Source: Escherichia phage vB_EcoM_ESCO10
DNA: 64,000 nt
Sequence record: OM386655.1
Reading direction: 5' to 3' (one strand)
Shown piece by piece: positions 46,149 to 64,000 of this stretch. Within the stretch, counting starts at the first letter, position 1, and every line of letters starts with the position of its first letter. The notes below the pieces were generated by a model that was given only the letters and a program-made list of their open reading frames with translations, was not told the origin of the DNA and did not search any database. The position numbers and the translations under genes are program-made.

Positions 46149-46162
46149 TTTTAATCTCCTGT

Positions 46163-46205: not shown

Positions 46206-46209
46206 AACT

Positions 46210-46704: not shown

Positions 46705-46705
46705 A

Positions 46706-46729
46706 ATACCTCCTGAGTATAGGAGGTAT
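46706..46729 (-). promoter_or_regulatory. SD-sequestering hairpin in the gene e leader, with late-promoter-like AATAAATA just upstream
   Basis: inverted repeat ATACCTCCT / AGGAGGTAT; the 3' arm is the Shine-Dalgarno and the ATG follows 2 nt later. Confidence 0.6.
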
Positions 46730-46738
46730 TTATTATTC

Positions 46739-47188
46739 TTAGAACATCGAGCTCAGAACCTTATACATCGACTGGCCCATGACATATTCCCATTGTGGAC
46801 GTTTAATCAAGGCGAAAGCATCGAACTCAGGAATACTACGACCGTCAGGGAACGTATGATAAGCAGTACATTTGCAATTCTTGAACTGCTCGTGTTCCAC
46901 AGGCACAGTATATAAGAACAGGTGTAGATTCTTATTGCTAGAATATTTGAACTCACCTAGGTCTTTCAGGAACGCAGGGTCATATGCAGTGAATCCAATC
47001 TCTTCTTCGGTTTCACGCATAGCGGCTTGAATTGGTTCTTCACCCAGTTCAACATGACCTTTAGGAATGTCCCATTTATGACGCATATTCTCTGGATTAC
47101 GAGAACCTGTTACACGGCCCATGACTAGTTCTTTATCAACGGTCATGAACAAAATACCTGCTGATAGTTCTTTAACTTTCTTACTCAT
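46739..47188 (-). CDS. nudE: Nudix hydrolase NudE
   Basis: 149 aa from MSKKVKEL; Nudix box [22 protein letters not shown]. Confidence 0.75.
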
Positions 47189-47426
47189 CGTCTCGTTTCC
47201 ATGATTGGTTAAAAATATCTTGCATAATAATTTCAAGGCGGGTTTCTGTTGATGGACTTTCACTATTAGATACTTGAACCATATAGTCGGAAATAGGACG
47301 GAACATATCCAAGTCACTTTCTAAATCTTCTTTTATTTTCTCTTCCGATGCTCCAGTATCATAGGAATACAGATAAGAATCGCATGATTCAGATTTAACA
47401 TAAATCGCAATACTCATTTTCGACAT
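47181..47426 (-). CDS. hypothetical acidic protein (81 aa)
   Basis: ORF. Confidence 0.4.
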   Translation of the reverse strand: MSKMSIAIYVKSESCDSYLYSYDTGASEEKIKEDLESDLDMFRPISDYMVQVSNSESPSTETRLEIIMQDIFNQSWKRDDE

Positions 47427-48007
47427 TCCTCAATAAAATCATTTAAATTCTGTTTAGTTTTACCTTCGTCATAAAGACGTTGTTGACGACGTAATCGCCA
47501 TGGCATTTCAATAGCCAAACACCAGATACTTAAAGCAGCACCAGCAGTAAAAAGGTTCATTAACCCAGCGCCAATAATAGTTCGTTCTAACGCATCATTC
47601 CAGTTGACATCAATTAAAAACGAGCTCAGCACTAGCATCGGAAATAAAGTAATAAGATATGCCACTACATATCGTCCAAACGTAAGCCATTCAGTATCAA
47701 TGAGCTTGGCCTTCCCATCTTGGAGGCAAATATACTTATCGTCAGTGCGAGTAATTTTCTTTGCGGGTTGCCATCCATTAACGATATATCCCATTTTATA
47801 TTCCTCAATTAAAAGCTCTTTCATATGACGGTTACAGTGCGACCAATCTACTGTACTGGCTGAAAGACCTTCATCACCATCATCAAGATTTCGCCAGGAC
47901 TTTTTAATAACCATATTTTCACCGCTTGGTACAATGATTCCGGCGTTTTCAGAACGCCGGACGAAGTTCACATCAAGGCCCATACATCCGGGTTCATAAA
48001 GAGCCAT
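47414..48007 (-). CDS. membrane-associated protein (197 aa)
   Basis: C-terminal hydrophobic helices. Confidence 0.45.
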   Translation of the reverse strand: MALYEPGCMGLDVNFVRRSENAGIIVPSGENMVIKKSWRNLDDGDEGLSASTVDWSHCNRHMKELLIEEYKMGYIVNGWQPAKKITRTDDKYICLQDGKAKLIDTEWLTFGRYVVAYLITLFPMLVLSSFLIDVNWNDALERTIIGAGLMNLFTAGAALSIWCLAIEMPWRLRRQQRLYDEGKTKQNLNDFIEECRK

Positions 48008-48693
48008 TACCAGCCCTCCATAGGGAATTCAAGATAAACCTGAGCATTAACACGAATTTCATTGGTAATATTTTTAACACGGTCAGTGTTACGAGATACA
48101 CGACCAAACCAACGCCATCCATTACTTACCGTACGAGAACCAGTATGCCAGGTTTGCCAATCAAACTGCAAGAGTGTACGGTCTGGAGCTTCCCACTGCT
48201 CTAATTCACCTGATTCAATTTTAGCCAAGACTTCTTTGTGCCATTGACGATAAATCAATTCACCTTCCGGGATTTCACTAAAGGTAGCTTCACCTGTAGC
48301 AAAATGGGTAGGACACACATCAGCGTTAACAAGACCAAGAATGTGTTCAGATAAATAGAGAGGATTGTCATAATCAGGTTGTCCTGCAGTAATAAAATGT
48401 TGGCCTGTTGGAATAGGTGGACGAGGAACATCGTCGTGGTGATAACCTGGGATAGCCGGATACCAGCCAGGCATCAACATATGCACACGCGAATCAAACA
48501 CTACTTGGTCATTGTTCCAATCATCAGGCAAGTTCATAATAAAAGAGCGCGTAATAGGGCCGCCATTATTATAAGCAAATTCTAAACTACAGTTGAAGAA
48601 CATCGGTTCGTTCTTGATTTTATCATTAGAAATGCCACCAGCAAAACCACCTACTGCACGAGCTTGACTATTAAAAGTTTTAGGACCGTTCAT
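48007..48693 (-). CDS. hypothetical protein (228 aa from ATG)
   Basis: start MNGPKTF with RBS GAGGAAAA; several His/Asp clusters; function unknown. Confidence 0.5.
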   Translation of the reverse strand: MNGPKTFNSQARAVGGFAGGISNDKIKNEPMFFNCSLEFAYNNGGPITRSFIMNLPDDWNNDQVVFDSRVHMLMPGWYPAIPGYHHDDVPRPPIPTGQHFITAGQPDYDNPLYLSEHILGLVNADVCPTHFATGEATFSEIPEGELIYRQWHKEVLAKIESGELEQWEAPDRTLLQFDWQTWHTGSRTVSNGWRWFGRVSRNTDRVKNITNEIRVNAQVYLEFPMEGW

Positions 48694-48706
48694 AATATTT
48701 TCCTCA

Positions 48707-48919
48707 TTACTTTTTATTGAAAAAGTACATTTTACCTTTAGGAGATAAAGATACACGAAGTGCGTTACCGATACCAACTGAACATTTAACCAGGTCGGCA
48801 GATTTCAATTCACCGAACGCTTGACGAAGGTCACCATCACGAGTGTTAACCATCAGGCATTTAGCACCAGCTGCACGAACTTCGTTTAACATGTTGATTG
48901 CTTGGTTAGAAAGTTTCAT
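48707..48919 (-). CDS. hypothetical small protein (70 aa from ATG)
   Basis: RBS GGAGAA; track start is a leader extension. Confidence 0.4.
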   Translation of the reverse strand: MKLSNQAINMLNEVRAAGAKCLMVNTRDGDLRQAFGELKSADLVKCSVGIGNALRVSLSPKGKMYFFNKK

Positions 48920-48943
48920 TTTATTCTCCATTTCACTCTGTTG

Positions 48944-48984
48944 TTTTGATAGGTCTATAGTATCACACCTATAGACCTTGTACA
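48944..48984 (-). promoter_or_regulatory. early-promoter-like element (-35 GTACAC variant)
   Basis: repeat family member with conserved downstream block. Confidence 0.45.
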
Positions 48985-48997
48985 CTGTTTTGTGCAT

Positions 48998-49957
48998 TTA
49001 TTTTGTGAAAGGACGAATTAAATGATGGTTATCTTGGAACCGCTTGATGTAATCATTTTCACCTAAAGCCTTATACATATTCACTACAGCTTGATAGTTT
49101 TCCCACGCGTATTCGCGGAACCATCCGGAAGTGATAGAGGTACACACTTTCTCAAGAGCCATATAGAAACTTGTGGCCGCCGGAATATTGAAGTCATTAG
49201 GAACCTGTGAACGTTCTAGCGCTAAGACACAAGTTTCTTCGTATACACCAGCCAGTTTAATAGCTTCAGGCAAAGCTTCAAACTTCTCACGAGAGGTCAT
49301 GACTTCAGAGCCTTCTTTAATATAAAAGGTATACGCCGGACGGCCTGCTAGCGCGACGGCTTCATGGATAGAGTCGTGGTCCAGAGTATAAATTGTGTCA
49401 TTAAAGAATGAAGATTTGTTAACGTCCAGTTTAGGATGAGAATAGCTCAACGTTTCTTTCTGACGTTGCAGCATGATTTCTTGGAGCTCTTCGTTCAGGG
49501 TTACACCCTTATTACGAAGGTATTTTATATGGGACATCGTCTTCAGAAAGAATGGGTTGTTCTTTAGGAAACGATGAGAGGTTTTAATAGCCAGACAGAT
49601 ATCAGGAGTAGCCCAATAGAAACCTGTCATACGATCTTTCTTAATATGATTTTCAGCATATTTCAGAAGACGATAGCTTGAGGTGATGTCTTCGTCTTGA
49701 AGCTCATCGGTGATTTCTCGTACGTTAGTAAGGGCCCGTACAATATAAGCTTCGAAATAGGTTTCTTTACCGTTGTGCATGCATTTAAAAGCTTGGACAT
49801 CAGGGTTGTCTACGTGTACATGAGCGCCGAACATCTGCGCTTTAAAGTTATTCCATGACCCTTGGTCAGCAATGAAATCCCAATCAGAATTTTCGATATA
49901 TTTACTTTCGATCAAACCTGCGTGGTGTAGAGCACGAGAACCAATAACTAACATCAT
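48998..49957 (-). CDS. hypothetical protein (319 aa)
   Basis: large ORF of unknown function. Confidence 0.55.
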   Translation of the reverse strand: MMLVIGSRALHHAGLIESKYIENSDWDFIADQGSWNNFKAQMFGAHVHVDNPDVQAFKCMHNGKETYFEAYIVRALTNVREITDELQDEDITSSYRLLKYAENHIKKDRMTGFYWATPDICLAIKTSHRFLKNNPFFLKTMSHIKYLRNKGVTLNEELQEIMLQRQKETLSYSHPKLDVNKSSFFNDTIYTLDHDSIHEAVALAGRPAYTFYIKEGSEVMTSREKFEALPEAIKLAGVYEETCVLALERSQVPNDFNIPAATSFYMALEKVCTSITSGWFREYAWENYQAVVNMYKALGENDYIKRFQDNHHLIRPFTK

Positions 49958-49978
49958 AATATTTTCCTCAGAATTAAA

Positions 49979-50215
49979 TTAAATGTCCCAGCGGGCGCTA
50001 TCATATTCATCCCATAGAGCTTCATGGGAGTTACAAACGATAGGAGCAATGACTCCGTTAATATCTTCGTTGTAAGGGCAGATAGTACAAAATGCATCTT
50101 CGAAACGAACACCGTAATCAGACTTCTTATACGCAATGTCAAAAATCTTTTTAAACTTTTCACGAGTAATGGTTTTAGCAACCACTTCAGTACCAATACT
50201 TTCGTAATAAATCAT
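49979..50215 (-). CDS. hypothetical small protein (78 aa)
   Basis: ORF; an alternative overlapping frame exists. Confidence 0.4.
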   Translation of the reverse strand: MIYYESIGTEVVAKTITREKFKKIFDIAYKKSDYGVRFEDAFCTICPYNEDINGVIAPIVCNSHEALWDEYDSARWDI

Positions 50216-50225
50216 GGTTATCTCC

Positions 50226-50426
50226 TCAGATAGGACCGTAAAGGTATGTCCAACGTTTAACGAAAGAAACTACTTCTTCCAAGGTATCGAAGACCTCTGT
50301 AGTGCCCGGAACGCCATCACCACTGATGGTTACTTTAATGCCATCTGAAACTTCCTGGAGATTAACCTCCAGTCGGTTGGCTTTGGCTTCATTTAGAACT
50401 TTGATTAATTCGTTTGCGATAGACAT
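50226..50426 (-). CDS. hypothetical small protein (66 aa)
   Basis: ORF. Confidence 0.4.
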   Translation of the reverse strand: MSIANELIKVLNEAKANRLEVNLQEVSDGIKVTISGDGVPGTTEVFDTLEEVVSFVKRWTYLYGPI

Positions 50427-50490
50427 TTTTATTCTCCTGTTCTGATAACGTGATTGTCATCAGTTGATAAGAGAATAGTACCACAGTTTT

Positions 50491-50820
50491 CTAGAGTTGT
50501 ACATCACTTCTGCAATATTCTAAAAATAATTTATTGTTGTCAACTGTATCCCAACGTCGCCAAGATGGATTCCAGACCAATGCGTTGTCACCACAATCAT
50601 TGAGCTTAAAATGGTCATAGTACATAGCTATATGTCTAGTCTCGTCACCAGAGAACCCTAGTATAGGCTCGCCGTGGGTGTGATACATATGATGGTGCAT
50701 TGAGAGGTCGCATTTATAAAACATTTCACGTTTACCGCGAATGAACAAGAATGCTTGCCCGTTCATATAAAATTCTTTATCTGTTTTCAAAAGATATTTG
50801 AATACTGAATCTTTGTGCAT
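50491..50820 (-). CDS. hypothetical His-rich protein (109 aa)
   Basis: ORF. Confidence 0.45.
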   Translation of the reverse strand: MHKDSVFKYLLKTDKEFYMNGQAFLFIRGKREMFYKCDLSMHHHMYHTHGEPILGFSGDETRHIAMYYDHFKLNDCGDNALVWNPSWRRWDTVDNNKLFLEYCRSDVQL

Positions 50821-50857
50821 AAGTCCTCCTTCACATCCGTGTGATTATTATATCCTA

Positions 50858-51082
50858 TTAACAGCTACTTGGATACCAGATTTTACCATCAGCTTGAGCA
50901 ACGAAGGTTCGACCAGCTTCTTCACCGTAACAAGAGCTATTCAGCCAATCTTCAAGACGAACTTCACCATCATAATCGTCGAGCTCGACACCAAAATCTT
51001 GAGCAGAAGCCATATCTTTAACTTTCTTATACAATGCGGCCAGTTCAAGAGCTGCTTTTTCTAATTCATTAATATCAGACAT
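50858..51082 (-). CDS. small paralog E of a tandem family (C-terminus ...WYPSSC)
   Basis: shares the terminal W-x-x-SS-C tail and upstream leader with the four neighbours. Confidence 0.55.
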   Translation of the reverse strand: MSDINELEKAALELAALYKKVKDMASAQDFGVELDDYDGEVRLEDWLNSSCYGEEAGRTFVAQADGKIWYPSSC

Positions 51083-51091
51083 TTTTATTCC

Positions 51092-51304
51092 TTAGCAAGA
51101 CATAGAGGAAGTAAACCAAAAACCTTCACCATCATTAATACCATAATCACCGCGAACCCAGCCATAATCTTCGTATTCAGGATTCTTCGGTGAAATATAT
51201 TGCCCACGTCCAGAAACATGGAAATCTTCACCAGTTTCATCAGCCACGCTCTGACCTTTACGTACCAGTTCACGGATTTGTTTTTCAATTTCATCAATAG
51301 TCAT
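51092..51304 (-). CDS. small paralog D (C-terminus ...WFTSSMSC)
   Basis: conserved tail and internal ADxxG..F..G..Y.SP motif. Confidence 0.55.
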   Translation of the reverse strand: MTIDEIEKQIRELVRKGQSVADETGEDFHVSGRGQYISPKNPEYEDYGWVRGDYGINDGEGFWFTSSMSC

Positions 51305-51313
51305 TTTATTACC

Positions 51314-51511
51314 TTAACATTCGTAAGAGGAGGACACCCAAGAGGTACCGCTAATAGTAATGCATCCATTATAAAGCGTAATATGCCTGTCTAAGTCACG
51401 AACACCATCAATATAGATATCAGCTTCTTCACGTTCTTCTTTACAAATCTGGATAACATTTTCAATAGCTGCGGCTGCAGTACGGATTGCACAATCTAAT
51501 TCACGAGACAT
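51314..51511 (-). CDS. small paralog C (C-terminus ...WVSSSYEC)
   Basis: conserved tail. Confidence 0.55.
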   Translation of the reverse strand: MSRELDCAIRTAAAAIENVIQICKEEREEADIYIDGVRDLDRHITLYNGCITISGTSWVSSSYEC

Positions 51512-51520
51512 ATAATTTCC

Positions 51521-51802
51521 TTAACATTCAGAAGAAGAGGACACCCAACCACCTTTTTCAAGGTCTGTGGTGTAGTCGTGGGTGTTAACAATGGCGTATT
51601 GAGGCTCACCATAGTTTTCCCAATGAGCAAGGTCGGCTTTCAGGGCGCCAGGAGAATAATAGTCACCGCCCATACCGCGAGCAGGGTATATATTAAAATG
51701 AGTCTCATATTTGTCTGCAATTTCCTCAGCTCGGCGAATAGCTTTATGGATTTCATTTACTGCGCTGGCCAGTTCTTTATTTTTACTATAATCGTTCATC
51801 AT
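51521..51802 (-). CDS. small paralog B (C-terminus ...WVSSSSEC)
   Basis: conserved tail and IADKY motif. Confidence 0.55.
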   Translation of the reverse strand: MMNDYSKNKELASAVNEIHKAIRRAEEIADKYETHFNIYPARGMGGDYYSPGALKADLAHWENYGEPQYAIVNTHDYTTDLEKGGWVSSSSEC

Positions 51803-51811
51803 AATAAACCC

Positions 51812-52105
51812 TTAACACATCTCAGAAGAGGAGACCCAAGCACCAGAAGTAACGATACCGTTTTCATCGACTTCGCCGCCCTTGTTTTCAATTTCATCAC
51901 GCATCCAGCGAGAGCATTCATAACCAACCGGATAATAGGTACGTCCAGAACCATATTCACCTACGTCAAACGAGACACCATACTTATCTGCAATAATGGT
52001 AGCTTCATTCTCGATATGGTCTTGGGCCCGAAGAAGTTTGCTGATAGCGTCCGTTGCGGTTTGAACGTCATTGTATTCAGGGATTACGATTTCAATTTTA
52101 TTCAT
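51812..52105 (-). CDS. small paralog A (C-terminus ...WVSSSEMC)
   Basis: conserved tail and IADKY motif. Confidence 0.55.
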   Translation of the reverse strand: MNKIEIVIPEYNDVQTATDAISKLLRAQDHIENEATIIADKYGVSFDVGEYGSGRTYYPVGYECSRWMRDEIENKGGEVDENGIVTSGAWVSSSEMC

Positions 52106-52473
52106 GATTTACATTCCTTAATAAAGGTTTCAAGTTCATTACATTTGGTTTGTTTTACATACTCATTATAATTAGCCATCGATACAGCAAATCTCTTTTT
52201 ACGTGGCTTGTTTATTTTATTGGTTTGGATGATATCCAAGACCAATGGGATAAAGTATCCTACTAAAGCAGGAACCCAAAGCCATGCAAGGCCCAGAACT
52301 TCAAATGGATGTCGAGGCATATCATTGATAATACCGCCGACAAGGAATCCAACTATTCCTCCAACCATACCAACAGGAAGTCCCATTAATAATGTAATAG
52401 TGATATCGTAATCGGCTAATGCATAACCTGGATCGGTTTTACTAGGCTTATACATTTTGAACCTCTTTAGCAT
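52102..52473 (-). CDS. membrane protein (123 aa)
   Basis: Gly-rich hydrophobic helices. Confidence 0.45.
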   Translation of the reverse strand: MLKRFKMYKPSKTDPGYALADYDITITLLMGLPVGMVGGIVGFLVGGIINDMPRHPFEVLGLAWLWVPALVGYFIPLVLDIIQTNKINKPRKKRFAVSMANYNEYVKQTKCNELETFIKECKS

Positions 52474-52984
52474 ATTCGCGGCATTCTTTAATAAAACGAT
52501 TAAGCTTACGTTGCTGTTTACGACTTTCTAATGTATACTCGTCGGCCAAAATAGTAAGCTCATCTTTATCATAATTTTTAATATCAGAGTAAGATGGTCG
52601 CCGGTCGACCATACCGAAGAGGTCGCCATTTTCTAACATCAAATAACATACTAAGTGATAATCGTCATCAGCATTAATAAGCTGCTTATAATCGCTAGGT
52701 TCGTTTAAAGCGTATACCGAATATCTTACTCCGGCGAATTCAACTCGCTTTATATCTAATCCAAGGTCAATAATTTCTAAAGCTTCTGCAAAAGAAAGGT
52801 CTTCAGCTAAAGCAAAGATAAAGGGTAATTTAGTAGTATAGCCACGGGTATTTGTTCTGCTTAAGAAATCATTAGAATAACCTAGGTCCTGGCGAATTCT
52901 ATAAAGAACTGCATTAGTTTCATGGGCAAGGCCACTATGTTTAAACCAATCAATATTTGATATAAGGTCATCATATAAGCTCAT
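52448..52984 (-). CDS. hypothetical protein (178 aa)
   Basis: ORF. Confidence 0.5.
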   Translation of the reverse strand: MSLYDDLISNIDWFKHSGLAHETNAVLYRIRQDLGYSNDFLSRTNTRGYTTKLPFIFALAEDLSFAEALEIIDLGLDIKRVEFAGVRYSVYALNEPSDYKQLINADDDYHLVCYLMLENGDLFGMVDRRPSYSDIKNYDKDELTILADEYTLESRKQQRKLNRFIKECREYAKEVQNV

Positions 52985-53032
52985 AATATTCTCCTCTCCT
53001 CCAAAGAGGGAGACTTCGGTCTCCCAGTAACA

Positions 53033-53626
53033 TTACTTAAGTGAATTGATGTAGTCTTCGATATCAGCTGAAGTCGTATCCATTCCAACTTGAGGGCCTT
53101 TAAACGTTTCTACACGCATCAGGGTATCTTCAATATCAATCTTGGTCAGTGCAGCGATTTCAACAACATCATCGGCAGTCGCAATACCAAGGGCAGCCAT
53201 ATTACGAGTTTCACGGATGTATTCCAATTTAACCGCTAGTTCCTGGCGAGAGTCATCAAGTTCCTTGACCTTCAATTTGATTTCGTTACGCATCTCGATA
53301 TAATCGTCAGCTTTCTTACGAAGTTGAGTAGCTGTTCGACGATAAAGGAGACCGAGTTTAGCATGTACCTGGACATCGGCACCTTCAGCAATCAATTTAC
53401 GGATTTCACGTTCTTTAGAACTAGCCAGTTGGTCCTTTTCGTTAGCGAGTTCACGAATACGTTTTTCTTCACTTACAGACTTAACATGAGCAGTCTGGAG
53501 TTCAGTGATTTTATCAATCAGAGTAGAAGCAGCTTTAGTGTATTGGTCTTCAATTGACAGGTTCTGAGCCATTGCGGTGCCAAGTTTAGAGCGGATGAAT
53601 TCAACGATTTTCTTTAAAGTGTTCAT
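53033..53626 (-). CDS. coiled-coil protein (198 aa from ATG), PspA/IM30-like?
   Basis: start MNTLKK with RBS GAAGGAAA; long charged heptad-like helices; family assignment tentative. Confidence 0.45.
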
Positions 53627-53702
53627 AGTATTTCCTTCAGTTAGATGGCATTTTGTAATCCATGAGGGCATTATACCCTGCCCTCGGAGGTTTGTAAACA
53701 TT

Positions 53703-54101
53703 TTATTTCATTTTTGCTAGGCAGATTTCATTGGCTTCCCATTGAGCTTGCTTAATAATAGCTTTGGACACAGGAACCTTTTGACCATAAGTGTTTGACG
53801 TCGAGAGAACAATATATTTGTTTGCCTCATTATGCCATCCCCGTGATTTTTCGCCATGAGTACCTTTAATTACAGCTGACACCTCAACAGAGCAGCCATC
53901 AGAACTAATCTTGGTGTCTACAATCCATTCATTTCTCTCGGCGGCTTCAATTTCCGATCTCATTTTTTCTTCATACACGGCAGCCCAATCAGTTTGTGTC
54001 AATCTTAAACTAAGAGCTTTCTTTAATTCTTTGGCAGCTTTTTGTTGTTCAGGTGTTAATGAATTATATAACTCTCGCATTTCTTTATCTTCGATATTCA
54101 T
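53703..54101 (-). CDS. hypothetical protein (132 aa)
   Basis: ORF. Confidence 0.45.
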
Positions 54102-54158
54102 TATGTTCTCCTCAAATTATGGGCTCATAATATCTCAATCATGAGCCCATGTAAACAA

Positions 54159-54432
54159 TTATTTCATATTATTGAAATATTCTTCTGCGATTTCATCGTT
54201 ATCATGGTAAATTTTAGTAGACAATTTAACATAACCTTCAGCAGCAAACATATTAACCACAACCTTTACAGTATACCACTGACCGTCGTCATTACCCATT
54301 ACTGCATAGGTTTCAAATATGGGATGGTCTTCACCAACAACTTTAATATCGTTAACAGTAGCACCAAATTCTTCCGGAACACATTTCATAAAGAAATTAA
54401 ACAGTTCACCGTAATTATCCATTTCATTCTCC
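54159..54432 (-). CDS. hypothetical acidic protein (87 aa from ATG)
   Basis: ATG after GGAGAA; track start is a TTG leader extension. Confidence 0.45.
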
Positions 54433-54464
54433 AAGTTGTTTTTCTGTATCAGTAGTTGATAGTT

Positions 54465-54506
54465 GTATAGTACCATGGAAGAACAGGGATGTAAACAGTT
54501 TTGTGA
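54465..54506 (-). promoter_or_regulatory. T4-type early promoter (repeat family variant)
   Basis: GTTTAC ... TACTATACAACTATCAAC. Confidence 0.5.
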
Positions 54507-54634
54507 AAAATTTTTTAAAAAGTTTTAGGGAATTCTAGGGAAGGGTGGGGCAATTAAAAGATAGGATAATATATTATAAAGGGTAGAAACTAAATGATGC
54601 CTAGAGAGGCCCAGAAAGGCCTAGATACCAAAAA

Positions 54635-54656
54635 GCCCCAACCTTTCGGTTGGGGC
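54635..54656 (-). terminator. intrinsic terminator (GCCCCAACC-GAAA-GGUUGGGGC + U-run)
   Basis: 9-bp perfect stem with GAAA loop on the minus transcript, a few nt after the stop of 54665..55126. Confidence 0.6.
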
Positions 54657-54664
54657 TAAGAATG

Positions 54665-55126
54665 TTATTTGATTTGTTTAGCAGACCAAATGCGGTCTTT
54701 GATGATTTTTTGGAGGTCTTCAACATACTCTAGGTCATGAGCATGTGGATTATCTTTAAAACTATGAGCTCGCGCAAGTTTCTGGCCTTCAGTCTTAATT
54801 ACCAAAAGTTCTTTAAGAATTGCTTCATATCTAGAGATAATTCCTTTAGCAATATTTTTTTCTTGTGCTGCTTTAGGGTCAGCCTTAGGAGCAGGTTTAC
54901 CAGAAGGTTTTTCGAAAGCCGCCCCAGTAGCAACCAGGCTTTTCCAGGCGGTGGTAACATAGTTACCCACAAAGCCTTCAGCTCTCATATCGTCGTAGAA
55001 CTTGTACCGAGATTCGTCAGAAGCATCTTTATAAGAATATTTACCTGCTTGGATAGCTGCTTGAGCTGCTGCACGAACATCAGAACTAGATGCTTCGGTC
55101 ATTAAAAATTCGTTGTAAGTTTTCAT
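54665..55126 (-). CDS. internal protein (IP) with capsid targeting sequence
   Basis: 153 aa; N-terminus MKTYNEFLMTEA; late promoter box about 29 bp upstream. Confidence 0.6.
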   Translation of the reverse strand: MKTYNEFLMTEASSSDVRAAAQAAIQAGKYSYKDASDESRYKFYDDMRAEGFVGNYVTTAWKSLVATGAAFEKPSGKPAPKADPKAAQEKNIAKGIISRYEAILKELLVIKTEGQKLARAHSFKDNPHAHDLEYVEDLQKIIKDRIWSAKQIK

Positions 55127-55154
55127 TATTGTTTCCTGTGATAATTAACTTATC

Positions 55155-55162
55155 TATTTATA
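55155..55162 (-). promoter_or_regulatory. T4-type late promoter box TATAAATA
   Basis: exact TATAAATA on minus strand upstream of the IP gene. Confidence 0.55.
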
Positions 55163-55166
55163 CCAA

Positions 55167-55194
55167 AAAGGCCCAACCTTTCGGAAGGGCCTTT
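55167..55194 (-). terminator. hairpin terminator (8-bp stem AAAGGCCC/GGGCCUUU with inner GNRA-capped helix)
   Basis: inverted repeat; could terminate in either orientation. Confidence 0.45.
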
Positions 55195-55334
55195 AACCTA
55201 GGGTAACCTTGTCGGGGTTCCACCTGCTAGGCAAGTGTTCGGGGCGCCGTTTCAGCTGTGATATAAGGGGGCATTAACAAAACATAAAGATTTATTAATG
55301 CCAGTCCTTAAACAGGGAACTTCAGTCCGACGAC

Positions 55335-55889
55335 TTACCGGTAGCGACCCGGTTTCTTGTTTGGTATTTCAAATTTTGTAGATTTAATATCTAATTTTTT
55401 AACTATAGAACTTATGTCATGAAAGAAAAACCATTCCCCATTTATATGATCTCTACTATAAATTGAGTGCATATATTTTTCAAGTTCTACCGCATCTTGT
55501 GAATATCTAAATGATACTATTTTAAAACTTCTAAACGGTGAAAATGTGTTGGCCGTTATAGCTCTAATATCAGGTTCTATACTTCTTCCTATTTTATAGT
55601 AATTAGGATTTGTAGTGTCTACCATTATGTATACAAAGGCCTGACGATAACTTTTTTCTATATCGAATTCATCTTTAAATTTCAATAGATTTAGAGCAGC
55701 CGTTCTACAAAATATTCCCCATATCGACGAGCGTTTAGCTTCGGTCATCGAAAAGAATTTTTTCTTATCTATGATTTTAAGAAAAGCCACCTTTTCAATT
55801 AGTTCTTGTGTTATTTCAAAATTACCATGGTGTATTAATCCAGCTTTTATAGCCAAATTAATTTGGTCCCAGTCTACATCACTTCTCAT
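55335..55889 (-). mobile_element. GIY-YIG/T5orf172-like putative homing endonuclease
   Basis: 184 aa; C-terminal VYIMVDTTNPNYYKIGRS...GEWFFF motif; visibly AT-rich; immediately adjacent to the tRNA genes (segB-like context). Confidence 0.55.
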
Positions 55890-55908
55890 AATATTATTCT
55901 CATTAATT

Positions 55909-55985
55909 TGGTCGGGGTGAAAGGATTCTAACCTTTAACCTGCGGTTTAGAGGACCGCTACTCTATACAATTGAGTTACACCCCG
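55909..55985 (-). tRNA. tRNA-Arg (anticodon UCU)
   Basis: hand-folded cloverleaf: acceptor CGGGGTG/CACCCCG, D-stem ACTC/GAGT, anticodon stem GCGGT/ACCGC with loop CCUCUAA, T-stem AAAGG/CCTTT, encoded CCA. Confidence 0.75.
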
Positions 55986-55989
55986 TGTT

Positions 55990-56064
55990 TGGTGGCCCTT
56001 GCTGGTTTCGATCCAGCTACCTATCAGTTATGAGCTGACAGCTCTCCCATTGAGCTAAAGGGCC
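55990..56064 (-). tRNA. tRNA with CAU anticodon (Met, or Ile2 if lysidine-modified)
   Basis: hand-folded cloverleaf: acceptor GGCCCTT/AAGGGCC, anticodon loop CUCAUAA, T-stem GCTGG/CCAGC, encoded CCA; 4 nt from tRNA-Arg. Confidence 0.75.
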
Positions 56065-56071
56065 TTAATTA

Positions 56072-56491
56072 TTAACTTGACCATCCCCAACCTTCGGAAG
56101 GACCATCGTAGTGTACACAAATATCAGGTGAAATATTAAAATTGGCTTCGTTCGAAGAAAAAACACCCAACTTTTTACCAAACTCACTGAAGCAGAATTG
56201 TTCGCCGCCTGGAGCCCAAACATCTTCAAATAAAACAGTGAATAGCCAGCCGGCAATTTCATCTGCATCAAATTCTGTTACACCTGAGCACATTTCATAT
56301 AACTCGTCATCACAGACTGTAGCCACGATATGGGCCGAATGTTCTTCAGATTTTAACCAGATGCGAATTAAATTACCATCAAAACAATTGTAGTTAATTT
56401 CGGATGGCCGGCAGTTATAAAATACTTCTGTAGCGATTTCTGGATTTTCCCAGGTTTCGTCGTTAAAATTGATAAGAATAGGAGTAATCAT
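56072..56491 (-). CDS. hypothetical acidic protein (139 aa)
   Basis: ORF with RBS GAGGAAAA. Confidence 0.5.
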   Translation of the reverse strand: MITPILINFNDETWENPEIATEVFYNCRPSEINYNCFDGNLIRIWLKSEEHSAHIVATVCDDELYEMCSGVTEFDADEIAGWLFTVLFEDVWAPGGEQFCFSEFGKKLGVFSSNEANFNISPDICVHYDGPSEGWGWSS

Positions 56492-56603
56492 ATTTTCCTC
56501 ATTAGTTGATTATTCTATTATGAAAGGCTCTTTGAGGGAAGAACCTTTGGTAATAGAGGGTACTTATTAATAATAACACACTGCTCTTAAAGCATATTAC
56601 TTG

Positions 56604-56984
56604 TTAACCTTCGTCAACAATAGTATGGGTGTTGGCATTAACAATCTGCCACCAGTCAAAACGGTTGGAACCATATTGAGGCTTATTCTCGTTTTCTTTA
56701 ATGATATCACGCAGTTCGTCTTCAGTAGCAGCTTTTGCAATTAAATCTGCATAACCGCCACGGGGATAATAGCTATCGCCAGCAAAGAGTAAAAAGTTTG
56801 TTTTAATATTCTTGAATTCTTCAAGAGTAATAACCGTTCCAGATGGTTGAACAATATCTACGTAACTATATCCTAATTTCTGGGCTTCATTTACTGCTTC
56901 AAGCAGGGTGTCATGGGCCCATCCGATTTGACAATCCGGTTTTTCAGATGGGTTGGCTTGATAATCTGCGTACACTTTATACAT
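56604..56984 (-). CDS. hypothetical protein (126 aa from ATG)
   Basis: start MYKVYADYQ with RBS AAGGTGA. Confidence 0.5.
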   Translation of the reverse strand: MYKVYADYQANPSEKPDCQIGWAHDTLLEAVNEAQKLGYSYVDIVQPSGTVITLEEFKNIKTNFLLFAGDSYYPRGGYADLIAKAATEDELRDIIKENENKPQYGSNRFDWWQIVNANTHTIVDEG

Positions 56985-56985
56985 T

Positions 56986-57171
56986 TTACTCACCTTTAGA
57001 GATTTTATCCATAACGAAAGAGATTGAACCAATTAAAAATGCCACTACTAAAGAGATTGTATTCTCAGAAGTTGAAAGCAAATTCAACATGAATCCTGCA
57101 AACATACTAAAACCAAAAGCAGTAATAGCGACCAGTGCAGTAACATTTCTAATTAATTCACAACGTTTCAT
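56986..57171 (-). CDS. small membrane protein (61 aa from ATG)
   Basis: ATG after GGAGAA; two TM helices. Confidence 0.45.
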   Translation of the reverse strand: MKRCELIRNVTALVAITAFGFSMFAGFMLNLLSTSENTISLVVAFLIGSISFVMDKISKGE

Positions 57172-57193
57172 TTTATTCTCCAATCACTCATTT

Positions 57194-57238
57194 GTTTTGA
57201 TAGGGCTATAGTATCATCACTAGAGCCCGTTGTAAACA
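57194..57238 (-). promoter_or_regulatory. T4-type early promoter (repeat family)
   Basis: GTTTAC ... ATACTATAGCCCTATCAAAAC. Confidence 0.55.
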
Positions 57239-57240
57239 AT

Positions 57241-57465
57241 TTATTCAACACCAGCTGCTTTCAAAAGTTTTTTAAGATTGGCTGTGCCCTGAGCAGAAAA
57301 CGTGACCTTGCCACCTTTTTCACTGATAGAACCAACCAATTTGGCAAGTTTATCATTAGGAATTTTTTTAAAATCGGCCAATGTTCCATCAAAGGTTTTT
57401 GAAACAAAAGGCAGTTCGTCTTCGTGTCTTTTAGCTTCTGTGATAAATTCTTGATATGTTTTCAT
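57241..57465 (-). CDS. small internal-protein-like protein with capsid targeting sequence (74 aa from ATG)
   Basis: N-terminus MKTYQEFITEAK from internal ATG; track start is a leader extension. Confidence 0.55.
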   Translation of the reverse strand: MKTYQEFITEAKRHEDELPFVSKTFDGTLADFKKIPNDKLAKLVGSISEKGGKVTFSAQGTANLKKLLKAAGVE

Positions 57466-57490
57466 TTTGATTTCCATTTGGTTGGTTTGT

Positions 57491-57531
57491 TTTGATAGGG
57501 TAATAGTATCATATTTATAAATGCTGTAAAC
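57491..57531 (-). promoter_or_regulatory. T4-type early promoter (repeat family)
   Basis: GTTTAC ... ATACTATTACCCTATCAAAAC. Confidence 0.5.
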
Positions 57532-57543
57532 AACTTTTTGAAA

Positions 57544-58221
<678 letters not shown>

Positions 58222-58229
<8 letters not shown>

Positions 58230-58980
58230 TTTTATTTCCTAATAATTTATCAATAGTAGTGTATAGTTCAGAAAGGGTTCCGTTATTTTCAATAACAACG
58301 TCACCCGGTAAAATTGGTAGACCCGCTTCAGTAATGTGCGAGTCTTGTACTTGACCGGTATCAGCGCGAACTACGTGAATAATCGTAGCACCCATCGCCC
58401 TGAGCGAATCAATTTCATGTGTTTGACGAACATCAGGTACGACATAGTATTTCGCATCAGAATATATTCTATCAAAATAGTCTAAAGCGAATAACTTAAC
58501 CCAATACATCTTATCAAATTGGTTAACAATAACATCGGTCCCAAGGGTCTGCATGAGACGACGTACTGACCAATTGTTAATATTATTTATTACTTCAAAC
58601 AGGTAGTCTTTTGTTTCTTCAGACAAATACTGGATAGTAGGGCCGTAATGATACTGGGTACAGACATCAATTCCTTTAATAGGAAGTATATTATTCAGTT
58701 TAACGATAGCATGTTCAAAGATGTCAATAACATCATATGGTTTTAAAGGAAGGATTTCTTCGCGGTTGTATCCAATACCTTCAAAACAATTAAAATCTAA
58801 TTTAGGCATATAGCTACGATCGAATACGGGGTCATCAGATATGTATTCGTAAGCTTCTGCTAGATACTTTTTAATAGGCCCAGCGAGCTGGAATTTAACA
58901 GAATCCATATTCTCAATTACATAGTTAGCAACGGTGTCCTTACCGCTACGTTTGAGTCCTACAATTGATATTAGTTTCAT
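58222..58980 (-). CDS. 1: deoxynucleoside monophosphate kinase gp1
   Basis: 252 aa; P-loop GLKRSGKDT; position as T4 gene 1. Confidence 0.85.
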
Positions 58981-59570
58981 TATTTTCTCATAGATGGATG
59001 CATAGACATACGTGCCACACGTTGTTCGGCATACGAATCAATTTGTGGACGACCTGTAACTATTGTACCATCTATTTCTACAGCAAACGACTTGAAGTTG
59101 AATGTTGCTGTGGCAATTATTGCAGGGTCAGAATCTTCTTTATAAGAGTACTGGATCTCGGAAAGGTCCGACGGCCATCCACCATAGTAATGGATGCTCA
59201 TTACGATTTTCTGTTTATTGTTATCAAGGATATGAAGCGTAATCGCTTCAGGCAGGCCTTTAGGATGCCATGCTTCAGATTCATGGGTTACATAGTTGTT
59301 TAATGATAACATCCATTTATAAATGTCCATCCATGATTTCAATTCACGGTCTACAAGAAAGTTTACAATCAAGGGGTCGAATTCTACAGTAGAACCTGGC
59401 AGCTTAGCACGATGTATACCCTGGGTCGATCCTGGGACATCTGAAATCGGAATATGGATACCTGGTAGTGTTACATCTTGCACGTTTAATTTGAATGACT
59501 GAGTCATTCCAGAGTCACTAACCTCTAAGATAAAGTTAGTAGTGTTAGTTTGGTTAAATAAACCGTTCAT
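58980..59570 (-). CDS. 3: tail completion / sheath stabiliser gp3
   Basis: position between genes 1 and 2; an internal Met would give 175 aa. Confidence 0.7.
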   Translation of the reverse strand: MNGLFNQTNTTNFILEVSDSGMTQSFKLNVQDVTLPGIHIPISDVPGSTQGIHRAKLPGSTVEFDPLIVNFLVDRELKSWMDIYKWMLSLNNYVTHESEAWHPKGLPEAITLHILDNNKQKIVMSIHYYGGWPSDLSEIQYSYKEDSDPAIIATATFNFKSFAVEIDGTIVTGRPQIDSYAEQRVARMSMHPSMRK

Positions 59571-59658
59571 AGTATTCCTATATTGCTTAAACCCTAGCCA
59601 GTGTATAATGGTCCTAGGTCTGTTCCATTCAATAACTGGCTGGGATAATAGATTAAGA

Positions 59659-60495
59659 TTATGCGTTCTTCCAAACTTTCTGAGCTGAGTAACGCTTACC
59701 TTTAGACATGAACTGCTGGAGAGGCATCATTACTACATTAGCCCAATCAGATGGTTTTATCTCTACCAAAGGACCTTTTATATTTCCTGGGATATAAGCT
59801 TTAATCATCATGTCGGCACCAGCGAATCCTTTAACTTTACTCCAATCGATTTTTAATTTTGTCGAGTTAGTAATGGTAGGCGTACTCGCGTATTGCTTCA
59901 GCAATTCTTCTAGAAATTGTTGGCGTGCTTTAGGTGGAATATAGTGTAAGTTCAACCCGTACATAAGATTATGCTTACCAAGCCCTAGATAAATGATTAA
60001 AGGATATTTGTCCCAATACGGTAATGTATCCTTGTGTTTGGCATCATAAATATAAGCATAAAGCTTGCCAGGAGACGGTTTAGATACCTGGTGTCCACGA
60101 ATTCCTTTCTTTAACGTTTCTGTAAACCATTTAGCCGATTTATTGTTTACAGCAGCGCCTTCATTAGCAATCTTATCACGAATACTCTTTCTAAAACTAT
60201 TTACCAAAATTAATTGACGTTCAGCTTTGGTTAATTTATTGCCAGGTTTCTTCTGGAGTTTTTCGACTTGTACAGCGGTTTTAATTCGACTCGAGTATCG
60301 AGACATCGCAGATGTAAAGCTAGAATACTTGATGCCTTTATCTTCAGCGAATTTCTTAGCCGAGGCACCTTTAGCCTTAGCTTTGGCATATTCAACACCT
60401 AAAGCTATCCATTGTTGTTCCGAACGAGTAGGCTTAGAACCTTTTGTGGTTTCAGTAGCCTCATTGATGTAGGAAAATATACTCATCCTTTCCAT
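59659..60495 (-). CDS. 2: DNA end protector gp2
   Basis: 278 aa; basic; position as T4 gene 2. Confidence 0.75.
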
Positions 60496-60932
60496 CCTAA
60501 TTTTTTCAGTGAGTTTTCAGTTATCAATCTAAAATTGATTCCCATTTTATCTGCTGTAGCTTTAGCAGCTTTCCATTTATCTTTATTTACACTCCATGTA
60601 TAATGTTCGTTGATATATCTCTTTTTAGCGGCTGTAGTCATTTTAGCAGGCGCCGCTGGAGGATGGGTTTCTTTAAAAGGTTTGACTTCAAAAAAGAATT
60701 GTTGGCCATTATCAAACTTAACCCAGAAGTCCATAAAATAACGACGTTTCTTTCCATCCGCATTACTAAAATATGGGATAACCACCTCTTCAGAGTTCCA
60801 TTGGACCACGTTAGGATGGTTATCAAGCCAACGCATGAGCCATGCTTCCCATGAAGAACGATATTGGATTTTCTTCCAGTCACCTTTATATTTTTGTAAG
60901 TTAGTAGGTTTAAATTTCCCTGAGTAAGCCAT
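60483..60932 (-). CDS. 4: head completion protein gp4
   Basis: 149 aa; position and size as T4 gp4; late promoter upstream. Confidence 0.75.
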
Positions 60933-60943
60933 AGTTGCCTCCT

Positions 60944-60951
60944 TATAAATA
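60944..60951 (+). promoter_or_regulatory. T4-type late promoter TATAAATA for gene 53
   Basis: exact TATAAATA 28 bp upstream of the gene 53 ATG; SD GGAGG. Confidence 0.6.
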
Positions 60952-60958
60952 TTAATAT

Positions 60959-60966
60959 TATTTATA
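60959..60966 (-). promoter_or_regulatory. T4-type late promoter TATAAATA for gene 4 (divergent)
   Basis: plus-strand tatttata about 27 bp upstream of the gene 4 start. Confidence 0.55.
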
Positions 60967-60978
60967 CTCGGAGGCCCT

Positions 60979-61581
60979 ATGCTCTTCTCATTTTTCGATC
61001 CTATCGATTACGAATCAAAAACAGTCAAGCCGGATTCGGGCTCATTAACTAATGCCGATGTATTGAGCGTGCCGATGACTGATATATTTAGAAATTATAA
61101 AGAATATTTTGATAAAGTGGCTAAAAATTATACACTAAAAACTTATTACATCAACGGAGCCCCTCGCCCAGAAGAATTAGCTAATCAACTTTATGGTAAC
61201 GTTCAATTGTATTGGGTCCTTTTGATGTGTAACAATATCTATGACCCATATTACGGATGGATTACAGGACAGGAATCTGCCTATCAAGCGGCCATTCAAC
61301 GTTATGCTACCGCAGGTGGAAACCAAGTCCTTTATCATGTTAATGAAAAGGGTGAGAAATTCTGGAATCTTGTTAACACACCAGAAAATCCATATACTTG
61401 GTATGACAAAGGTGATACAGAAAAACGTTATCCTCAGTACGAAGGCCCATTGGCCGCAGTAGATATTTACGAGGATGCTATTCGTAAAAATGAATATAAG
61501 CGCGAAATAAAAATAATCGACCCTAATGATATTGAGTCTTTTATTTCTGCTCTTATTCGCGAAATGGAGAAAGCCCTCTAA
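60979..61581 (+). CDS. 53: baseplate wedge protein gp53
   Basis: 200 aa; directly precedes gene 5 as in T4. Confidence 0.8.
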   Translation: MLFSFFDPIDYESKTVKPDSGSLTNADVLSVPMTDIFRNYKEYFDKVAKNYTLKTYYINGAPRPEELANQLYGNVQLYWVLLMCNNIYDPYYGWITGQESAYQAAIQRYATAGGNQVLYHVNEKGEKFWNLVNTPENPYTWYDKGDTEKRYPQYEGPLAAVDIYEDAIRKNEYKREIKIIDPNDIESFISALIREMEKAL

Positions 61582-63323
61582 TGATTAACATGTCTGATAA
61601 CGTAAGTTGGTTCGTCGGTGTAGTTGAAGACCGAATGGACCCACTACAACAAGGCCGAGTACGTGTACGTGTATGGGGTATGCATCCGTATGAAAAAGTA
61701 CAAGGCCCTGTAAAAGGCCTTCGTACAGAAGATTTACCATGGATGTCTGTATTGATGCCTACATCTTCTGCATCTGTTTCAGGTATCCAAACTGCCATGA
61801 CAGGCATGGTCCCAGGCACACAAGTTTATGGTCATTTTCTTGATAAATGGAAATTAAACGGGCTTGTCCTCGGTACATATGGGTCTGCTTCAAAACAAAA
61901 AGCAAACCCTAATGAAGGTTTTAGTGACCCTACAGGACAGTATCCACTTTATTTAGGTAATGACGCTGCTGCACTAAACAGAGGTGGTGAAGTTGGATAC
62001 GACGCCACGTCTAATATAATACAAGATGCAAACACCGATGTAGGTATTAATCCTGATGGATTAGACTTAAGCCAAGTCAAGCCTGATGATAATCCTAATT
62101 TCACAATAGAAAACATGCTTCATCGTGATGAGGGCCTTCGTCTTAAGGTATATTGGGACACAGAAGGATATCCTACTATAGGTATAGGCCATCTTATTAC
62201 TCCACAACCTATTAGAGATATGAACCAGATAAACAAAATATTATCTAATCAGGTAGGACGAGAAGTTAAAGGTAACCCCGGTGCAATATCAATGGACGAG
62301 GCTTCTAAATTATTCCAAGAAGACCTTAAAAAAGTCCAAAATGATATAGGCCGGCATAGTGTTGTAGGTCCTGTTTACAATAAAGAAAACCGTTCAAGAC
62401 AAATGGCTCTTGAAAACATGGCTTTCCAAATGGGATTAGGTGGATTGGCTAAATTCCGTGGAATGCTTAGTGCAATGCTAATAGGCGATTATAAAAAGGC
62501 ATTTGAAGAAGCTCGTAATTCAGTGTGGTTTAACCAAACTAAGGGGCGTGCATCAAGGGTGTCAATGATTATCCTCACAGGTAACGTGGAATCATATGGT
62601 ATTATGGCCCCTAAAGAAAGAGAATTTAAAGGGCGCTCATATAGAATGATTCAAACCTTTGCAGCTCCTGCGAATTCCGACCCAGCAGATCCGTGGACGC
62701 CAGAAGATACAAGAATTCTTTTTAAAGAACCTGATTCTAGTTATAAAGGTGAATACCCATATGTCCAAACCATGCAGACCGAAGGTGGACACATCCAAGA
62801 ATTTGATAACACCCCAGGGCAAGAACGTTATCGTTTAATCCATCCAACCGGTAGTTATGAAGAGGTTGCTCCTGATGGTCGTAAAACTTCTAAGACGGTG
62901 GCTGATGGGTATTATATGACCCAAGGCGATTCTAATACTTATGTTGGCGGTAATAATAAAGTCAACATAGGTGGTGATGAAACATATTATAATATGGCAA
63001 ACGTGCGCCGTCAAACTGACGGGTCTGAAAGCATCCATATTCGTGGTAATGAAACCAAAACAGTAGAAGGTGATGGAACCCTTATTGTTAAAGGAAACGT
63101 CACAATTCTTGTTGAGGGTAATGCAGATATAACTGTTAAGGGTGACGCAAAAACATTAGTTGAAGGCAACCATGATTATACAGTAAATGGAAACGTTAAA
63201 TGGTCTGTAAATGGAAACGTTGATATGGCTGTTGCAGGCAATTGGTCTGAAACAATGAGTACGATGAGTTCAATTGCTTCAGGCCAGTACACTATTGATG
63301 GTTCGAGGATTGACATTGGCTAA
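61581..63323 (+). CDS. 5: baseplate hub / cell-puncturing protein with lysozyme domain gp5
   Basis: 580 aa; N-terminal OB-fold region WFVGVVEDRMDPLQQGRVRVRVWG, central T4-lysozyme-like domain (DEGLRLKVYWDTEGYPTIGIGHLI), C-terminal VxGxxxxx beta-helix repeats; TAATG overlap with gene 53. Confidence 0.95.
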   Translation: MINMSDNVSWFVGVVEDRMDPLQQGRVRVRVWGMHPYEKVQGPVKGLRTEDLPWMSVLMPTSSASVSGIQTAMTGMVPGTQVYGHFLDKWKLNGLVLGTYGSASKQKANPNEGFSDPTGQYPLYLGNDAAALNRGGEVGYDATSNIIQDANTDVGINPDGLDLSQVKPDDNPNFTIENMLHRDEGLRLKVYWDTEGYPTIGIGHLITPQPIRDMNQINKILSNQVGREVKGNPGAISMDEASKLFQEDLKKVQNDIGRHSVVGPVYNKENRSRQMALENMAFQMGLGGLAKFRGMLSAMLIGDYKKAFEEARNSVWFNQTKGRASRVSMIILTGNVESYGIMAPKEREFKGRSYRMIQTFAAPANSDPADPWTPEDTRILFKEPDSSYKGEYPYVQTMQTEGGHIQEFDNTPGQERYRLIHPTGSYEEVAPDGRKTSKTVADGYYMTQGDSNTYVGGNNKVNIGGDETYYNMANVRRQTDGSESIHIRGNETKTVEGDGTLIVKGNVTILVEGNADITVKGDAKTLVEGNHDYTVNGNVKWSVNGNVDMAVAGNWSETMSTMSSIASGQYTIDGSRIDIG

Positions 63324-63357
63324 TATTTTACCTATGAGCACAGATTTAGGAGATTCC

Positions 63358-63855
63358 ATGGAAGGAAGCTCTATCGATGTTACGTTTACAGCTCAATTAG
63401 AAACAAACGAAACATTAGTTGAAATAAATATAACAGAATATGAGCCTACAGAAGGCATTATTGTCGATGGAGCTCGTTTATATGGAACCTACGAATCTGT
63501 ATTTGGATTCTCTGAGGATGCATTAAAATACCGATTAGGAGATGAATTTAAAACTGCCGGTTCATGGAAAGACCTACCAACTGATAGTAATGCTCAATTA
63601 TACCTCTGGAAAGCTCCTGGTAATCTTCAGAAGACATTTTCTTACACAGTCACATTAACCTATGACTTTCAAGAAGAGACGTCAGGAGGCGATACAGGGA
63701 ACTCAGGCGGCAGTAACTCTAGGGCTGGCGCTGAAACCGATCCACCTCCTGCTCCTGTAAGAAAAACTCTTACCAAGGTTTATACCAAGGTTATAGTCGG
63801 AAATTGGAGCAAGTGGGCTAACCAATTAAGAGAATATGTATATGCGAGGCCATAA
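63358..63855 (+). CDS. 5.1: gp5.1-like protein
   Basis: ATG at 63358 preceded by GGAGA; an alternative ATG at 63334 is possible; track start is further upstream inside gene 5. Confidence 0.5.
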
Positions 63856-64000
63856 TGTCTGGGTTAAGTTATAACCAATGTGTGACAGCAGGTCATGAAG
63901 CATGGCCTCCTACCATAATTAACGCCACCCAAGGTAAAGTATTTACCGGTGGAATTCCTGTATTAGTTGATGGGGACCCTATTACAGAACATACAGAAAT
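63855..64000 (+). CDS. 5.4: PAAR-like spike tip protein gp5.4 (5' part; truncated by window end)
   Basis: TAATG-coupled start; [49 protein letters not shown] has a PAAR-like character. Confidence 0.6.

Follow-up and report, generated by a model that had tools for sequence, protein, structure and literature searches.

The DNA at positions 55240-55360 on the minus strand of Escherichia phage vB_EcoM_ESCO10 (OM386655.1) almost certainly encodes an ortholog of T4 rnaD, the RNA also called species 2 or species II, and this ortholog has a conserved fold. Positions are those of the window, by which is meant the whole stretch of 64,000 nucleotides that was analysed, and position p of the RNA corresponds to window position 55361-p. 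In T4 the existence of rnaD was already established in the 1970s, about fifty years ago, and its appearance here is a correct rediscovery of a known RNA and not the description of a new one. The original prediction had proposed that about 140 bp of structured non-coding sequence beside the tRNA genes (55195-55334) might be analogous to the small stable RNAs by the T4 tRNA cluster; base-for-base alignment with T4 and RB27 shows that it is in fact an ortholog of one of them. The earlier interpretation is therefore supported, with the caveats that the boundaries are shifted, that the neighbouring rnaC is missing here and that a second stretch proposed to be structured is not a structured RNA. As a discovery this is a small addition, rnaD being long known, though absent from Rfam.

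Identity of the RNA

A megablast search of positions 54400-56100 against phage genomes returned 722 records. The matching region of RB27 is annotated as rnaC, rnaD and tRNA-Arg, and annotations of the same three genes lie beneath the match in RB3, Aplg8 and T4. When aligned base for base with the annotated rnaD of T4 (NC_000866) and RB27 (KM607000), the window covers rnaD positions 4 to 121. By blastn (115-121 nt) the window rnaD is 98.3% identical to that of VR5, 96.7% to VR7, 94.2% to RB27 and 85.6% to T4. A distant blastn search with 55196-55365 found a homolog in 744 records, all from T4-like coliphages and their close relatives. A covariance model of the family (R1) gave a single match in the 64-kb window, scoring 143.3 bits over model positions 1-121, and the same model recovered T2-type homologs that had been left out of its building at 86-88 bits. 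The ortholog, of about 121 nt, lies on the tRNA strand, distal to tRNA-Arg, in a unit that ends at a trailer hairpin and terminator. In GenBank records of T4-like phages rnaD is mostly unannotated or crossed by called short ORFs, with annotation present in some relatives. When the window was searched with Rfam 15 at gathering and permissive thresholds only the two tRNAs were matched, and a search of T4's own rnaC/rnaD region likewise gave only tRNA matches, with all others far below threshold. Nothing similar to the rnaD sequence was found in complete E. coli genomes, and rnaD is thus not a mimic of a host RNA at the sequence level.

The T4 gene itself (T4s002, NC_000866 71053..71171) and the window copy are alike in strand, in their place distal to tRNA-Arg and in predicted fold, and both have the trailer hairpin and terminator further downstream. 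They differ in that the window has a T5orf172 ORF inserted after tRNA-Arg that reads 26 nt into rnaD, in that no rnaC follows, and in that the apical hairpin of the window is of the RB27/VR5 sequence type and not of the T4 type. The lack of rnaC and the fusion of an ORF to the 5' end are minor variations, since they are shared with sequenced phages such as VR5 and VR7.

The limits of the RNA are not those first proposed. rnaD begins 26 nt further 5', at 55360, and these nucleotides were missed because the T5orf172 ORF reads through them; at the other end the last 45 nt (55195-55239) are a separate trailer hairpin. The proposal that the stretch is structured held on the minus strand, where 55195-55334 folds better than its shuffles (z -2.11, 4 of 200 as good; plus strand z -0.88), and with the corrected boundaries, 55240-55360 on the minus strand, the value becomes z -2.74 with none of 200 shuffles as good. 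The stretch was also rightly described as lacking an ORF: none of at least 30 aa lies in 55207-55334, and a 38-aa plus-strand ORF (55090-55206) touches its edge only.

The locus and its neighbours

The window is from a T4-like mosaic coliphage, Dhakavirus-like. Over 44000-64000 it is nearest, among database records, to Dhakavirus VR5, with 93.9% identity across 80% of the query. Local genes are on the minus strand, in the order tRNA-Met(CAU), tRNA-Arg(UCU), a 184-aa ORF, rnaD, trailer hairpin, terminator and a 153-aa ORF. The two tRNAs, at 55990-56064 (Met) and 55909-55985 (Arg), both on the minus strand, were found by ARAGORN and by Rfam RF00005 (63.7 and 61.4 bits for the two) and form the upstream genes of the rnaD operon. 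A tRNA or tmRNA reading of the stretch itself was rejected, as ARAGORN gives only these two upstream tRNAs.

The 184-aa ORF (55335-55889, minus strand; phrog_5032) contains T5orf172/MUG113 domains, with Pfam matches to PF13455 (1.6e-07) and PF10544 (6.4e-06). These make its earlier label of 'GIY-YIG-like' reasonable, and on the strength of the domain matches it is a GIY-YIG-related, putative mobile nuclease gene. The 153-aa ORF (55126-54665, minus strand) belongs to phrog_2280, which has no assigned function. It had been called an internal protein (IP) gene, a label that would fit the resemblance of its N-terminus, MKTYNEF, to the capsid-targeting peptide of T4 internal proteins. The motif MKTY(N/Q)EF(L/I) occurs at or near the start of two ORFs, at 54665-55126 and 57241-57477 (both minus strand), and a Pfam search with these two ORFs gave no match.

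The region 54400-56100 is itself a mosaic. tRNA-Met, tRNA-Arg and the T5orf172 ORF are nearest to Gaprivervirus VR7 (95.7%), rnaD and its trailer are nearest to Dhakavirus VR5 (98.8%), and the 153-aa ORF together with the spacer below it is nearest to Tequatrovirus RB27-like phages (about 93%).

A conserved fold with a variable tip

The comparative set was drawn from annotated phage records, IMG/VR and metagenome contigs and comprised 41 loci with 36 distinct rnaD sequences. The fold model was obtained from RNAalifold and inspection, and pair statistics were taken on an alignment of 30 sequences (A3). In this model the RNA consists of a small 5' hairpin followed by a long irregular rod. The hairpin, H1 (55337-55353, minus strand), has a 5-bp stem (8-12/20-24) and an invariant 7-nt loop, GUCGCUA; it is drawn from pair counts and is present in the minimum free energy (MFE) structures of T4, AnYang, T2 and JS09. 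The rod (55244-55334, minus strand), drawn from RNAalifold and pair counts, is made up of P2 (27/117 and 29-33/112-116, with U28 bulged), P3 (40-43/104-107), P4a (50-55/93-98) and the apical hairpin P4b (59-70/80-91; 55270-55302, minus strand), which forms the variable tip. P4b is the inverted repeat GGCATTAA...TTAATGCC that had first drawn attention to the stretch; reported then as a perfect 8-bp repeat, it is real and longer, with 12-nt arms at 55270-55281 and 55291-55302 that are 92% complementary.

The pairing is conserved in relatives, as the covariance analysis proposed with the original prediction would require, and compensatory changes are present. Standard pairs occupy 93.8% of cells in A3, against 32-52% when the partners are slid by 1-3 columns, and changes on both sides are seen at 8 pairs, in 45 cells. 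The covariation score was 0.189 compared with a shuffled mean of 0.112, and none of 500 shuffles scored as high. The cleanest pair is 8:24 in H1, which among the 36 distinct homologs is A-U in 24, G-C in 10 and G-U in 2 with no mispairs. Pair 50:98 in P4a is G-C in 16 sequences of A3, A-U in 5 and something else in 9, and in P4b double changes are found in five pairs. In P3, where the register is ambiguous, pair 40:107 is U-A in 22 of the 36 sequences, A-U in 9 and U.U in 5. P2 (6 pairs) never varies and is for that reason neither supported nor refuted by covariation. The homologs are closely related, and part of the covariation signal may have been inherited instead of arising independently.

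Variation is concentrated at the tip. At least four sequence versions of the apical hairpin and centre exist; the AnYang-type tip is a wholly different stem of 9-10 bp, and the T2/IME341-type has two small hairpins in its place with H1 and the basal rod kept. Across the 36 sequences positions 4-43 vary solely at 8, 24, 28, 40 and 42, and the 3' block 100-117 solely at 107. The H1 loop and the base of the rod are thus almost invariant across four genera, and the tip is free to change while staying paired.

The architecture of the model is the MFE structure of the T4, AnYang, T2, JS09 and VR5 homologs. For the window sequence the model fold comes within about 1 kcal/mol of the MFE structure; the latter is a different fold only through a private substitution, A118C, which T4 does not share. 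The thermodynamic signal is weak in several homologs (z -0.76 for T4, -1.01 for AnYang and -0.75 for T2). Two elements suggested by MFE calculations were set aside. In a terminal stem 10-13/118-121 positions 119-121 vary opposite invariant partners, with C changed to A at position 120 in 8 of 36 sequences and G changed to U, A or C at position 121 in 6 of 36 with its partner unchanged. A local hairpin at 26-37 is disfavoured, as it is broken by a U28A variant, whereas in the long-range P2 model U28 is a bulge.

The 5-bp stem and 7-nt loop of H1 resemble a tRNA arm, and this, together with the location in a tRNA cluster and the T4 copy ending ...GCGCACCA, might suggest that rnaD is the decayed remnant of a tRNA gene, or of something tRNA-like, that no longer has a function. 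Such an origin is very improbable. Neither ARAGORN nor the Rfam tRNA model gives a match at rnaD (55150-55400, E up to 10), and the 3' tail varies among ACCG, ACAG, AAAG, ACCU, ACCC and CCCG, so that no CCA end is conserved. Near-invariance across four genera would not be expected of a relic, and the conservation pattern largely refutes the idea.

The upstream junction

The 184-aa ORF has no stop codon of its own; its last 8 codons and the UAA (55337-55335, RNA positions 24-26) fall within rnaD. Coding sequence thus covers the first 26 nt of the RNA, where translation and folding of H1 would compete on the unprocessed transcript. The same junction between a T5orf172 ORF and rnaD is found in VR7, UFV-AREG1 and sutha. 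Among the 41 loci there are six upstream contexts of rnaD: tRNA-Arg directly, the T5orf172 ORF, a segB-like endonuclease ORF, two other small ORFs (with a TAA stop at rnaD positions 2-4) and one further context. Homology picks up again at RAGAAR-CCGGG in all six. Two imperfect copies of the junction between the tRNA 3' end and the rnaD leader flank the ORF cassette in the window, both read from the sequence of the minus strand: a right copy, ACCAAACAAGAA, at 55354-55365 and a left copy, ACCAAATTAATGAGAA, at 55897-55912. The native T4 junction is ACCAAATGAGAA. Judged from these sequences, the tRNA-Arg/rnaD junction is a recurrent landing site for mobile ORFs.

This pattern raises the question of whether conservation acts on the DNA and not on the RNA. 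The 5' part of rnaD could be a recognition or cleavage region of free-standing homing endonucleases that is homogenised by co-conversion, with the fold incidental. The six contexts, segB-like and T5orf172 ORFs included, all join rnaD at the same position, a duplicated junction sequence brackets the ORF of the window, and SegB-driven preferential inheritance of this region is documented (PMC2330249). Set against this, the 3' block 100-117 is equally conserved although it lies beyond the freely varying, recombining centre; the compensatory changes at 8:24 and in P4 are a signature of selection at the RNA level; and the mapped SegB site is in tRNA-Asn and not in rnaD (PMC2330249). Conservation of rnaD as a homing site is accordingly improbable.

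On the plus strand 55337-55353, H1 and the RAGAAR leader read as something close to a weak intrinsic terminator (ACCGGTAGCGACCCGGT-TTCTTGTTTG). The leader may be conserved for this reason instead.

The downstream junction, trailer hairpin and terminator

Alignments with T4, RB27 and VR7 show that rnaC (the species 1 RNA; 139 nt, or about 147 bp with spacers) is missing between rnaD and the trailer hairpin. The rnaC-less junction, ...CCCCGAA|CACTTGCC..., lies at 55238-55241 on the minus strand. In T4, rnaC is the other stable RNA of the rnaD operon, with a tRNA-like T-arm (GGGTTCGAATCCC), and it has no sequence similarity to the flagged stretch. Downstream of rnaD, 29 of the 41 loci have rnaC, 9 have an identical rnaC-less junction (GAA|CACTTGCC; the window and L004, L005, L006, L010, L016, L017, L020 and L022, with VR5, AnYang and IME341 among the phages represented) and 3 have unrelated sequence, which in L009, L069 and L075/DK-13 consists of G+C-rich repeats. 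VR5 aligns without a break over all 170 nt (98.8% identity) and so has the same arrangement as the window. The identity of the junctions points to a single deletion, or a single gain of rnaC elsewhere, that would have spread by descent or recombination. Such naturally rnaC-less genomes show that rnaD does not depend on rnaC in cis.

The 3' trailer hairpin, CACUUGC-CUA-GCAGGUG (55221-55237, minus strand, identified by folding), is kept in all relatives; it follows rnaC in T4, RB27 and VR7 and directly follows rnaD in the window. Beyond it, at 55163-55220 on the minus strand, sequence and fold reveal a conserved trailer (GGAACCCCGACAAGGUUACCCUAGG) and an intrinsic terminator, GGCCCUUCCGAAAGGUUGGGCC-UUUUUGG, in which a G+C-rich hairpin with a run of U occupies 55191-55163. 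The terminator ends the tRNA/rnaD transcription unit; it contains the inverted repeat 55167-55174/55187-55194, and relatives annotate 'terminator' at the homologous position.

The trailer hairpin, as CACTTGCCTAGCAGGTGGAA..CCCGACAAGG, is also kept in Erwinia phage Cronus (L076, NC_055743, 904-937), a member of a distant Tevenvirinae genus, in which a covariance model search found no rnaD and in which rnaC is likewise not detectable. Further on, positions 980-1175 of Cronus (about 200 nt) are G+C-rich and unannotated, contain a T-arm-like GGGTTCGAGTCCC and give no Rfam match.

Maturation and possible function

The precursor that joins species 2 to species 1 is a substrate of RNase III and RNase P. 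In T4 a single precursor transcript covers the tRNA cluster; it is also the source of the species I and II RNAs, and it ends after species I (PMC2330249). The T4 RNAs C and D have been classed as late RNAs by RNA-seq of infection, the described probe of the Northern blot being for RNAC (PMC9697503). By analogy with T4, rnaD in the window would be transcribed as the last segment of a precursor that runs from tRNA-Met and tRNA-Arg through the T5orf172 ORF to rnaD, the trailer hairpin and the terminator, and host endonucleases would excise it. The 5' cut would be made in the single-stranded, A-rich leader that is retained here, ACCA/AACAAGAAA, and would be the same cut as frees a tRNA 3' end; in the window a cut in the leader would release rnaD from an mRNA. 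A 3' cut or trimming would take place downstream of P2 and ahead of the trailer hairpin; with rnaC absent, this hairpin forms the direct boundary of the 3' end of rnaD here. The product would accumulate as a stable RNA of about 120 nt.

It may be asked whether this product is the functional species at all. rnaD could act in cis as a processing or stability module that directs the endonucleolytic separation of tRNA-Arg or the ORF mRNA and shields the upstream RNAs from 3' exonucleases, the 120-nt species being a by-product. rnaD is always immediately after tRNA-Arg or an ORF inserted there, always precedes either rnaC or the trailer hairpin and terminator, and keeps the single-stranded leader RAGAAR in all six upstream contexts; T4, moreover, matures all of these RNAs from one precursor (PMC2330249). 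Such a role is nonetheless doubtful, given that a trailer hairpin and strong terminator are already present downstream of rnaD, that the upstream T4 tRNAs are separated without modules of this kind, and that near-invariance of at least 40 nucleotides, loop residues included, goes beyond what a protective hairpin needs. Among the three explanations that compete with a trans-acting RNA of some kind it ranks first, followed by conservation as a homing site and then by the tRNA relic.

The role of rnaD is given as unknown in two publications (PMC3014915, PMC9697503), and that of rnaC in the first of these (PMC3014915). We weakly favour a trans-acting RNA, as the basal module and the H1 loop are invariant and the tip is free to change. 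Tentatively, rnaD may bind a host or phage protein via this invariant basal module, made up of the H1 loop and the internal loops of P2/P3; the apical hairpin would then do no more than cap the structure. A further reading, which we regard as unlikely, is that rnaD is a self-sufficient RNA that acts on a host factor, for instance by serving as a decoy or modulator connected with host range or defence, and that in the window it is derived from the 3' UTR of the T5orf172 gene. This reading is suggested by three observations: rnaD is kept, with an invariant basal module, in a lineage without its partner rnaC; it tolerates fusion to the 3' end of a mobile nuclease gene; and, when an independent study followed a T4-like phage during adaptation to a semi-permissive strain of E. 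coli, mutations arose in rnaD alone, three lines fixing the same single SNP (PMC12685909). The convergence of this SNP hints at a host-dependent phenotype.

Two groups of RNAs offer analogies. Bacterial and phage tRNA-like or Y-like RNAs such as YrlA are structured, stable and linked to tRNA genes, and like rnaD combine a conserved basal module with a variable distal part. Unlike them rnaD has no T-arm or D-arm mimic and matches no Rfam family, and to our knowledge no Ro-type partner occurs in E. coli. Enterobacterial sRNAs that are derived from 3' UTRs and processed by endonucleases serve as a working analogy, in that the rnaD of the window likewise starts in the last codons of an ORF and would need release from an mRNA. 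The likeness is limited by the fact that rnaD follows a tRNA in most relatives, the overlap with coding sequence being a secondary result of ORF insertion.

The covariation-supported fold is of modest practical use, since it separates the invariant basal module from the free apical hairpin and so indicates which residues to mutate. Together, the fold, the rnaC-less genomes and the pattern of insertion sites make the role of T4 RNAs C and D slightly easier to attack.

Further scans and the second stretch

A scan of IMG/VR with the 15-mer AAGTCGTCGGACTGA returned 46 stretches, among which rnaD accounts for only 14 loci, all of them already found with a longer 5' pattern. Two extra matches to the 3' pattern (L024 and L025) were rejected as coincidences within coding sequence.

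A second stretch, 54507-54634, had been described as structured non-coding sequence with repeated blocks. Short repeated blocks do exist there (GCCTAGA occurs twice), but the stretch folds no better than its shuffles (z +0.16 on the minus strand and -0.94 on the plus strand). A terminator scan places an intrinsic terminator at 54657-54634 and a promoter scan an early-type promoter at 54495-54467, both on the minus strand. The spacer is conserved in 579 phage records, and phage Lutter is annotated with a terminator and promoters there. It is an ordinary intergenic spacer running from terminator to promoter, and not a structured RNA.

The terminators on either side of the 153-aa ORF, at 54634-54657 and 55163-55191 (minus strand), are near-identical modules of the form ..CC[AA/TT]CCGAAAGGTTGGG[G/C]C-TTTTTGGTAT about 530 bp apart. 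The same module occurs 3-5 times per genome in relatives and may be a portable unit or a substrate for recombination.
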